Source: Anaerolineales bacterium UBA2200 (lineage in GTDB: Bacteria > Chloroflexota > Anaerolineae > UBA2200). Taken from it: a stretch of 64,000 nucleotides of DNA. Under the pieces are notes generated by a model that made no database searches, was not told the origin of the DNA, and was given only the letters and a program-made list of their open reading frames with translations. A program made the translations under genes and the position numbers. The DNA is taken from the NCBI GenBank assembly GCA_002327925.1, contig DCVA01000043.1:5948-69947 (forward strand), given 5' to 3'. Of the stretch, positions 21,763 to 27,520 are shown one piece after another (the first letter of the stretch is position 1; every line of letters starts with the position of its first letter).

Positions 21763-22182
21763 TCAGCGGGCGCTGGATACCGCCTGCGCCACGGCCGCCG
21801 CATTGGGAACGCCCGTTTGTGCATAGACTTCGTGACCCTGGACGTTCAGTACCAGCGTGGTGGGTGTTGCGCGGATGCCGTATCGGCGCACGACGTCAAG
21901 GCCCGTTGCCGTTGCCGCGTTGATGCGAATGACGGCGGCCTGACCTTGCAGCTGACTTTCGATCCTGTCCACGACAGGCTTGGCGATGAGGCAGGACGGT
22001 CAGCCGTTGGAGAAGAAATAGACCACCGTCGGCTGTCCCGTGGCGATCAGTCGGTCAAAGTCCTCGGCTGATGCGAGTGGGGTGCCTTCGCTTCGAAGCA
22101 TCAGCCAGGCCAGCGGCAGCCCGATCACGATCAAAAGGGAGATCCAGTTCTCTCTGGCAAAGCGCAGCAATCTGTCAGCCAT
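21763..22182 (-). CDS. Membrane-anchored thioredoxin-like protein with in-frame TGA: putative selenoprotein (U-P-S-C)
   Basis: Track ORFs 22000-22206 and 21763-21972 are in one frame. Read through, it gives TVVYFFSNG-U-PSCLIAKPVVDRI...YGIRATPT, a UxxC plus cis-Pro motif. A CCTGTC-GTG-GACAGG hairpin lies 21 nt after the TGA. Confidence 0.85.
21964..21978 (-). promoter_or_regulatory. Putative bacterial SECIS hairpin of the Trx-like selenoprotein
   Basis: Perfect 6-bp stem with a GUG loop downstream of the in-frame UGA (22000-22002). Confidence 0.55.
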
Positions 22183-22253
22183 GAGTTCCAAGCATTCTCC
22201 TTTCACAGAAAACTACGTGATGACAAACACGAGCGAGTCGCCACGGCAACGGT

Positions 22254-25986: not shown

Positions 25987-26150
25987 CTCTCCTCCCCAAC
26001 TTCGTCGTTGAGCCGCACAACATCCCGGCGGAACTTGCGGTATTCTACCCGAGCTGGCTGACCCCTGCAAACAAGAGTCTCGAGTGCCCATTTCGCCAGT
26101 GATGGGAACGGAGTATAATAGCGACCATCTGTGCTCGGATTGGAGGACAA

Positions 26151-27458
26151 GTGCCAAGACGCCTGCTATGTGTTACGATCCTGCTGATTGTGCTTTCCCT
26201 GGCCGCCTGTTCGCAGAACACGGCGGCGCCCCCCACCGCAACGCGAGTCGGTCAGCCGACCGACACGCCCGTGCCGCCAACCGGCACACCCGGCGATGGT
26301 GAGGTGGAGATGGGATTCACCTCGGAGGGCTTTCCGTACAAAGGCAATGCGAATTCCCCGGTGACGCTCTGGGAGTTCTCAGAATTCCAGTGACCGTTTT
26401 GCGCCCGTCACGCCAACGAGACGGGCCCGCTTCTGTATGAAGCGTATGTCAAGACCGGCAAGGTAAAGATCGTCTTTGTGCAGTCGCCGCTGGAGTCGAT
26501 TCACCCGCAGGCACGTAAAGCGGGAGAAGCATCGCTCTGTGCTGCCCGGCAGGGCATCGAGTTCTTCTGGAGCATCCACGACCGGCTGTTTGCCGGCACG
26601 GGTGACTGGAGCGGCCTGGGAACCGCGACCGATGTCTTCAAGGGCTATGCATCAGAGCTGGGGCTGGATCTCGCCCGGTTCAGCGCTTGCCTGGATGCGG
26701 GCGAGACGACGGCTGAGCTGAACACCCAGATACAGTATGCCTACACCAACGGGGTGAGCGGAGTCCCCTACTTCCTGGTGAACGACTGGCCTGTCTCCGG
26801 GGCGCAGGCCTATAGCGTGTTCCAGAGCGCCATCGAGAAGGCACTGGCCGGCGAGCATCCACCGCCAACGCCCACACCCCTGCCCGAAGGCAAGAGCTGG
26901 CTCGACGTCAATCCGGACAAGCCCGGCTACACCTATGGCGGGGATGCGTACCGAGGTGAGGAAACGGCGCAAGTTGTGGTCTTCCAGTTCATCGACTTTG
27001 CCTCGGCCGACAACCGCACGGTTGTCGTGGAGACATGGCCAGAGCTGGAGAAGCAGTACCTGGAAAGCGGAAAGGTGCGCCTGGTAATCAAGCACCTGCC
27101 CCTTGCCAGTCAGCCCACGGCCGTGCTGGCCTCGGAGGTTGCTGAGTGCGCTGGCCAGCAGAATGCCTTCTGGCCGATGTATGGTCTGCTGTTCCAGAGT
27201 CAGAGCGAATGGAGTAGTCTGGAGGACGCGACGGCTGTCTTCAAGCGCTTTGCCTCAGAGCTCAAGCTGAACGACGCGGCCTTTGCCGCCTGTCTGCAGG
27301 ATGACGAAGCCAGAGCAAAGGTAGAGTCCGATATGGACATTGGCGTACAAAACGGCTTCCCTGCCGCACCCGTGTTCTTCATCTTCAAAGGCGACGAGGG
27401 TGGGTATGTGCAGACAGATCAACTGCGGACGGCAATCGACGAGTTCCTGACCGAGTAG
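26151..27458 (+). CDS. Two-domain DsbA/thioredoxin-fold lipoprotein with in-frame TGA: putative selenoprotein (U-P-F-C)
   Basis: Track ORFs 26151-26393 and 26478-27458 are in one frame. Read through, it gives WEFSEFQ-U-PFCARHANET...GKVKIVF. Lipobox LAAC, cis-Pro loop GVSGVP and SD GGAGG. Confidence 0.88.
26403..26426 (+). promoter_or_regulatory. Putative SECIS hairpin of the DsbA-like selenoprotein
   Basis: 7-bp stem GCCCGTC/GACGGGC beginning 9 nt after the UGA, with a small CG-CCAA-CG apical hairpin. Confidence 0.55.
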
Positions 27459-27480
27459 ACACTCGTCTAGCAGGACAATG

Positions 27481-27520
27481 AAACAGCCTCCCGCCGGCTC
27501 TGCCGGCGGGAGGCTGTTTT
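27481..27520. terminator. Bidirectional intrinsic terminator
   Basis: Perfect 18-bp inverted repeat AAACAGCCTCCCGCCGGC-TCT-GCCGGCGGGAGGCTGTTT between convergent genes. Confidence 0.9.

Follow-up and report, generated by a model that had tools for sequence, protein, structure and literature searches.

A gene on the forward strand at 26151-27458 of a 64,000-nucleotide stretch of Anaerolineales bacterium UBA2200 DNA (contig DCVA01000043.1; hereafter the window) is interrupted by one in-frame TGA, and very probably encodes a genuine selenocysteine (Sec)-containing, DsbA-like, extracytoplasmic thiol-disulfide oxidoreductase. An earlier reading made from the sequence alone (the sequence-only reading) had proposed a hidden DsbA-like lipoprotein selenoprotein with the active site UPFC. 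That proposal is supported by the position of the TGA, which falls on the first Cys of a CP[FY]C column, by the persistence of the TGA and of protein conservation on both sides of it in 29 distinct orthologues, by synonymous sites that are frozen over two hairpins directly 3' of the TGA, and by the selA and Sec-containing selD genes of the same genome.

Decoding of the in-frame TGA

The gene forms a single frame of 435 codons and a stop, in which the sole internal stop is the TGA at 26391-26393 (codon 81), set within the residues W-E-F-S-E-F-Q-U-P-F-C-A-R-H. Direct reading of the sequence bore out the in-frame SEFQ-TGA-PFC that the sequence-only reading had reported. A list of open reading frames (ORFs) cuts the gene in two, giving an 80-codon ORF at 26151-26393 and a 326-codon ORF that begins at a GTG at 26478. 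The 28 codons from the TGA to this GTG restart (26394-26477), which had been described as open, indeed contain no stop.

We compared the gene with its relatives at the level of both protein and DNA. In an alignment of 14 full-length homologues (A1; the window protein and 13 others of 416-460 residues), the U81 column reads CP[FY]C (or CPAC) in 12 of the 13 other homologues, and P0005 has Leu. Most homologues in the databases are 326-329-residue 'proteins' that span just the last 75% of the query, as would be expected if gene callers stop at the same TGA. A search for related loci with the single protein as query returned 2 distant loci, and an alignment-based query returned 78. A TGA in exactly the U81 column was found in 29 distinct Sec-form genes, comprising the window gene and 28 further Anaerolineae orthologues; these were drawn from syntenic metagenome loci (L022, L023/L024 and L025; G, C and L numbers are our handles for genomes, contigs and loci), from a locus of the same genus (L051), from other related genomes and from a scan of species-representative genomes. 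The TGA and both of the hairpins described below are present in the syntenic loci L022-L025 and in L051. Since more than 25 independent assemblies share the TGA, a sequencing error at this codon is untenable. Among the 29 Sec forms, codon entropy is approximately 1-1.7 bits at conserved residues on either side of the TGA. Synonymous change is free at these residues, and both halves of the gene are therefore under selection at the protein level.

These data bear on the alternative that the TGA is a true stop, which would leave either a broken gene or an 80-residue lipoprotein stub followed by a DsbA-like protein of 326 residues that starts at GTG 26478 and has no leader. This is how gene callers annotate the locus, most homologues being 326-329 residues long with 75% query cover, and it would fit an assembly from which selB and tRNA-Sec are absent. 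However, 29 distinct orthologues share the TGA, the sequence on either side of it conserves its amino acids while varying freely at synonymous sites, and full-length Cys forms exist. Termination would also deprive the downstream ORF of its signal peptide, its active-site residue and half of its thioredoxin fold, and would leave the frozen synonymous sites downstream unexplained. We consider a true stop extremely improbable. Genome-wide reassignment of TGA to a sense codon was ruled out separately, given that TGA ends 957 of the 2053 ORFs of at least 300 codons and is the commonest ordinary stop in the genome.

Cys forms are scattered singly within a Sec-dominated clade in a maximum-likelihood tree, whose well-supported branches alone require at least 4 changes (7-8 under parsimony). 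Because the tree places the Cys forms in this way, Sec looks ancestral in the two-domain clade, with repeated replacement of Sec by Cys. The ratio of Sec to Cys forms is approximately 5:1 in the unbiased genome scan, outside of which lie the deliberately picked Cys forms L060-L064. Sec and Cys forms can be closely related, even in one genus (G005 and G009 versus G008). One further locus, L065:771 (JGI 3300009943, Ga0117933_1090830), has the Leu codon TTA, which differs from TGA by a single base, in place of the Sec codon; it was either inactivated very recently or misassembled.

Downstream RNA element and selenocysteine machinery

The sequence-only reading had also placed a 7-bp hairpin 9 nt after the UGA. 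This hairpin is present at 26403-26426 (H1) and is followed by a second at 26428-26444 (H2). The 66-nt fold has a free energy (dG) of -23.7 kcal/mol, with z = -2.8 relative to shuffles. Sec forms hardly differ in the element, and synonymous-site entropy was used in place of covariation statistics. In the 29 Sec forms, synonymous entropy is approximately 0 at codons +4 and +5 (GCC CGT), +9 and +10 (CAG ACG), and +12 to +17 (CCG CTT CTG TAT GAA GCG), and these near-invariant codons coincide exactly with the arms of H1 and H2. Within the element, CTT (Leu) and CGT (Arg) are fixed despite the 62% G+C content of the genome. Because synonymous sites are frozen here in Sec forms while the flanking codons vary, the data point to a two-hairpin RNA element at 26403-26444 that is under selection as RNA and is presumed to be the selenocysteine insertion sequence (SECIS).

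Comparison of Sec and Cys forms from the same orthologous group agrees with this assignment. The core of H1 is intact in 28 of the 29 distinct Sec forms versus 2 of 7 Cys forms, H2 in 27 of 29 versus 2 of 7, and both hairpins together in 26 of 29 versus 1 of the 7 distinct Cys forms, which hold decaying remnants of the hairpins. In L065, both hairpins are perfect by virtue of a compensatory double change from C-G to G-C, made at the cost of one Ala to Gly and one Gly to Ala substitution; this was the only clear compensatory event that we saw.

The window holds a second candidate selenoprotein, judged by frame and fold, on the minus strand at 21763-22206. It is a membrane-anchored thioredoxin (Trx)-like protein with a TGA at 22000-22002, reading VVYFFSNG-U-PSC, and a hairpin, CCUGUC-GUG-GACAGG, begins 21 nt past its UGA (+24). 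When folded for comparison, the UGA sites of this gene and of the genome's selD each gave a 6-7-bp stem with a G-first triloop, the selD hairpin being GGCGCAG-GUU-CUGCGCC at +29..+45. H2 can be redrawn in the same style, as a 6-bp stem with a U-U closure below a GUA (or GGA) triloop, and its start at +37 is later than usual. It is possible, as a matter of speculation, that H1 folds away 24 nt and so places H2 approximately 10-11 nt from the UGA. In L048, a more distant Sec form with a single domain, the hairpin found at the same offset is a different one.

We evaluated the Sec machinery in the genome assembly (2.8 Mb, 54 contigs, 88% complete). Profile searches recovered selA (554.8 bits) and selD (367.6 bits; G000:C13:130822-131754, minus strand, locus L009, where G000 is this genome). 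The selD gene has its own in-frame TGA at the catalytic position, RAAG-U-AAK, and since selD itself carries Sec the organism needs Sec decoding for its own selenophosphate synthetase.

Several observations weigh against the proposed decoding. No selB was found in the 88%-complete assembly, where all seven matches to TIGR00475 are other translation GTPases (EF-Tu, IF-2, LepA, three EF-G-like proteins and Der), and the SelB winged-helix domain was not found in the genome. A tRNA-Sec was likewise not found: ARAGORN identified 40 tRNAs in the whole genome, none of them with the anticodon TCA. An Rfam scan of 26300-26560 at E values up to 10 returned neither a SECIS nor any other family; the loop of H2 lies 40 nt past the UGA, a greater distance than the classical bacterial model has; and many H1 loops lack a G, although H1 itself is at the canonical offset. 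SelB may bind either H1 or H2. There is, moreover, hardly any covariation in a near-invariant element, such that the case for it rests on the freezing of synonymous sites. The top Rfam match to tRNA-Sec in the genome (49 bits) was examined and rejected as a tRNA-Leu(CAA).

The missing genes are widespread among relatives. Of 31 related genomes, 27 have a selB match above the cut-off, the same-genus genome G001 among them, and tRNA-Sec is present in 10 of the 13 relatives examined, again including the same-genus genome. In G001, selB and tRNA-Sec are 18 kb apart within a 48-kb stretch (C1:76-124 kb), and this region (G001:C1:76000-124000) has no orthologous counterpart in our assembly, in which synteny resumes at approximately nt 50 of contig C12. 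Because the same-genus region maps to a contig break, the simplest reading of the missing selB and tRNA-Sec is a gap in assembly or binning. The Sec-machinery test that the sequence-only reading had put forward was thus answered in part, with selA and a Sec-containing selD in the assembly, and selB and tRNA-Sec absent from it though present in the same-genus genome.

The same evidence allows us to assess the possibility that readthrough of the UGA inserts a residue other than Sec (Cys or Trp, for instance, through near-cognate decoding), selB and selC having truly been lost from the lineage. The failure to detect selB and tRNA-Sec in the assembly is what would be expected in that case. Against it, selA has been retained and selD has a catalytic UGA, and loss of Sec decoding would be lethal to the function of both. 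The same-genus genome has selB and tRNA-Sec, the corresponding 48-kb region falls at a contig break here, the assembly is 88% complete with 40 tRNA genes, and TGA is the commonest stop. We regard readthrough without Sec as very improbable, and Sec insertion at codon 81 as the preferred reading.

Protein architecture and predicted redox role

The features of the gene and its product are collected in Table 1. The N-terminus reads PRR-LLCVTILLIVLSL-AAC, and the lipobox of the sequence-only reading was confirmed as L-A-A-C, with L15 and C20 invariant in the 14 full-length homologues. The AlphaFold2 model, which has a mean predicted local distance difference test (pLDDT) score of 85 and a predicted template modelling (pTM) score of 0.54, contains a helix at residues 2-19 and two confident DsbA-fold domains whose mutual orientation is uncertain.

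Table 1. Coordinates of the selenoprotein gene, its signals and the regions of its product within the window
Feature	Coordinates	Strand	Description
Shine-Dalgarno-like GGAGG	26142..26146	+	4 nt 5' of the GTG start; start fits orthologue N-termini
Full coding sequence	26151..27458	+	435 codons + TAG; UGA at codon 81 probably read as selenocysteine; Pfam on full protein: Thioredoxin_4 x2, DSBA x1
Predicted lipoprotein signal peptide	26151..26210	+	PRR n-region, hydrophobic core, lipobox L-A-A-C; Cys20 = 26208-26210
Pro/Thr-rich flexible tether, residues ~21-50	26211..26300	+	low complexity, length varies among homologues; pLDDT <50 at 19-49
Catalytic DsbA-fold domain, residues ~51-235	26301..26855	+	U81-P-F-C84, Val-cisPro V205-P206, invariant Cys130/Cys180; Pfam match 62-230
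In-frame TGA, probable Sec codon U81	26391..26393	+	TGA in this column in 29 distinct Sec-form genes; Cys in full-length homologues
Hairpin H1	26403..26426 (+12..+35)	+	GCCCGUC / 10-nt loop / GACGGGC, 7 bp; starts 9 nt past UGA; conserved core = inner 5 bp CCGUC/GACGG
Hairpin H2	26428..26444 (+37..+53)	+	CGCUUC-UGUAU-GAAGCG
Inter-domain linker	26856..26936	+	PPPTPTPLPEG...; pLDDT ~78-89 around residues 231-260
Second DsbA-fold domain, residues ~263-435	26937..27455	+	S285-A-D-N288 (27003-27014) for CxxC; invariant Cys333/Cys381; Ala-cisPro A406-P407; pLDDT ~90
Post-stop hairpin	27480..27520	unstranded	GC-rich stem between A-run and T-run, 19 pairs, dG -44.4 kcal/mol

Domain 1 is closest, in both sequence and structure, to C. 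diphtheriae DsbA (4pwo) and TsdA (7unn), with 33-34% identity and a Foldseek E of approximately 4e-12; the next matches are BdbD (3eu3), Wolbachia alpha-DsbA1 and MdbA (5c00). When domain 2 is aligned to alpha-DsbA1, S285 and N288 fall on both cysteines of its CYHC motif. Because these residues replace both active-site cysteines, domain 2 is predicted to be redox-dead, and it nevertheless holds many invariant residues. Two invariant cysteines in domain 1 (C130/C180) and two in domain 2 (C333/C381) fall on C97 and C146, the pair that forms the second disulfide of alpha-DsbA1. This alignment suggests that both pairs form structural disulfides and hence that an oxidising route may operate outside the membrane. 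The same genome encodes a paralogue (G000:C24:22672-23931, L045) that also has two DsbA-like domains, in which both retain CxxC (CPYC and CPPC) and which has no TGA.

The gene is flanked on one side by a divergent glnA and on the other by a convergent gene for a Gmad2-domain lipoprotein, with mraZ and rsmH farther out. Orthologue neighbourhoods differ, with GlnA, DHDPS or deacetylase-LysM genes. An operon with a redox partner was ruled out, as the gene is monocistronic and its neighbours vary among orthologues. The post-stop hairpin is likely a two-way terminator common to the selenoprotein gene and the convergent Gmad2-domain gene; a simple terminator scan did not list it, just four T following the stem, and it was revealed by folding.

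These data allow us to propose how the protein might work. The 435-residue lipoprotein would be exported by the Sec translocon and anchored at the outer face of the cytoplasmic membrane by a presumed lipid on Cys20, and the Pro/Thr tether would keep the catalytic part off the membrane. During translation, SelB and Sec-tRNA(Sec), recruited by the two-hairpin mRNA element (+12 to +53), would decode the UGA at codon 81, presumably inserting Sec. The selenol or selenenylsulfide of U-P-F-C, exposed at the surface, would then exchange with the thiols and disulfides of exported proteins. Domain 2, with its SxxN motif and strong conservation, would most likely act as a substrate-binding or chaperone module, in analogy to the b' domain of protein disulfide isomerase (PDI); this binding function is put forward by pure inference.

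We lean to a PDI-like role because the relatives are oxidases, the cis-Pro is preceded by Val, structural disulfides are probable and one domain is non-catalytic, and whether the protein is indeed a PDI-like catalyst that forms and shuffles cell-surface disulfides without DsbB or VKOR is, in our view, an evenly balanced question. The search for partners complicates such a role. No match to VKOR was found in this genome, in any of the 10 family genomes or in one other genome of the order, and no match to DsbB was found in this genome, to which that search was confined. Because VKOR and DsbB have no match in the genome, the enzyme would be an oxidase without its usual re-oxidant. A selenenylsulfide is also, thermodynamically, a poorer oxidant than a disulfide. 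In other Anaerolineae families, a VKOR gene adjoins single-domain relatives of the protein (G016:C16:13448-14385, G029:C56, G019:C56, G017:C76, G023:C1:3282610-3283596 and G015:C2). The single-domain copy at G016:C16 itself has an in-frame TGA and so forms a Sec-DsbA/VKOR pair.

A more elaborate form of the PDI-like proposal would make the protein self-sufficient, with its selenenylsulfide re-formed by small oxidants, which would be the reason for Sec; with the dead domain holding the substrate; and with a two-part SECIS in which H1 is folded away to bring a SelB-binding H2 to the canonical distance. We consider this combination improbable.

Alternatively, the protein may be a reductive selenoprotein, that is a DsbG-, ResA- or CcmG-like selenol reductase that is fed by a CcdA-type shuttle and either repairs sulfenylated or misbonded surface proteins or keeps the cysteines of apocytochromes reduced. 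This would accommodate the absence of VKOR from the 10 family genomes and of DsbB from the genome itself. A possible source of electrons lies at G000:C35:7000-9900 (L144, L145), where a DsbD_TM/CcdA-like gene, two membrane Trx-like genes (CRPC and CKPC) and a second ccdA are found, and the membrane-anchored Trx-like UPSC candidate is encoded 4-6 kb from our gene. The motif UP[FY]C corresponds to the CPYC of E. coli DsbG, and Sec in reductases is usually the attacking nucleophile. The family was also first named 'DsbG-like', going by a 2026 review.

Other evidence argues against reduction. The nearest relatives are the Gram-positive oxidases DsbA, TsdA, MdbA and BdbD, and Val precedes the cis-Pro (V205-P206). 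Val also precedes the cis-Pro in E. coli DsbA. The single-domain relatives in other Anaerolineae adjoin VKOR, one of them being a Sec form, and the invariant Cys pairs that align with the second disulfide of alpha-DsbA1 imply that disulfides are formed outside the cell. In the assembly, moreover, a TAA and a frameshift break the frame of the second ccdA at C35, which may reflect misassembly, a mixture of strains or a pseudogene. We regard a reductive role as rather unlikely, and retain a PDI-like oxidoreductase as the working model.

Relation to known selenoproteins and disulfide catalysts

Scored over its whole length, the protein reaches 255.5 bits with NCBIfam NF041057 ('Rcas_1661 family thioredoxin-like (seleno)lipoprotein'), for which the cut-off is 190. 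This score is the sum of two domains that each fall below the cut-off (153.9 and 104.8 bits separately; 145.2 and 104.8 bits in the genome scan). Because the score exceeds the cut-off only as a sum, the window protein is best classed, from its sequence, as a close relative of NF041057 with a two-domain architecture, rather than as a plain equivalog. The 2026 review (PMC13188914) assigns NF041057 to the 'DsbG-like protein' selenoproteins (UxxC) of Kryukov & Gladyshev 2004. The review also lists a 'DsbA-like protein form 1' (UxxC) from a Sargasso Sea study of 2005, and 'DsbA-like protein' selenoproteins (UxxC; PF01323 / COG2761) have been reported from the Sargasso Sea and from bacterial genomes (Zhang et al. 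2005, PMC1088965; Zhang et al. 2006, PMC1794560).

The selenoprotein is genuine, but of a type that has been catalogued since 2004-2005. The sequence-only reading was correct that DsbA-like selenoproteins are known from metagenomes, and undersold the point, given that a curated family, NF041057, and, according to the review, a 'DsbG-like' family of 2004 already exist. It made no mention of the second domain and its lost redox motif. Its further remark that the physiology of these proteins is essentially unexamined agrees with our own search, as we found no experimental work on a natural DsbA-like or DsbG-like selenoprotein in the literature searched. A limited literature search likewise gave no description of the redox-dead second domain.

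The value of the finding lies mainly in annotation, and the overall picture of selenoprotein biology is unchanged by it. Most members of the clade stand in public protein sets as 326-329-residue fragments without signal peptide or active site, mis-annotated as truncated, and a complete cell-surface redox enzyme is recovered once the UGA is translated as Sec. With its close Sec and Cys forms, the clade is well suited to asking what Sec buys in a DsbA-type enzyme. It is equally suited to asking how disulfides are handled outside the cytoplasm without DsbB or VKOR, and what role a non-catalytic DsbA-fold domain plays.

Among known systems, NF041057 is closest: its members and the window protein are Chloroflexota lipoproteins of the Thioredoxin_4/DsbA fold, whose xPxC motif begins with Sec or Cys. 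The model, however, describes one domain of 247 positions, whereas the window protein has 435 residues and an added DsbA-fold domain that is predicted to be redox-dead. The DsbA-like selenoproteins of Zhang et al. resemble it as DsbA-fold UxxC thiol oxidoreductases with Cys homologues and a SECIS hairpin 3' of the UGA, and they too are known by computation alone. They are mostly single-domain proteins of Proteobacteria and marine origin, in contrast to the two-domain lipoprotein clade of Anaerolineae.

The Gram-positive DsbA-type oxidases (4pwo, 7unn, 5c00 and 3eu3) are likewise extracytoplasmic and membrane-anchored, and share the thioredoxin fold, the helical insertion and the position of CxxC. 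They differ in having Cys, a single domain and re-oxidation by VKOR or BdbC/DsbB, where the window protein has Sec and a second domain that appears dead. For domain 2 the best match in the PDB is alpha-DsbA1 of Wolbachia pipientis (3f4r), whose second disulfide, C97-C146, aligns with the invariant Cys pairs; its CYHC is active, whereas domain 2 of the window protein has Ser and Asn at those positions. Eukaryotic PDI (a-b-b'-a') offers an analogy only. It too joins catalytic and non-catalytic thioredoxin-fold domains, and its non-catalytic domain binds substrate, but there is no specific sequence relationship, and the domains of the window protein are of the DsbA type with helical insertions.

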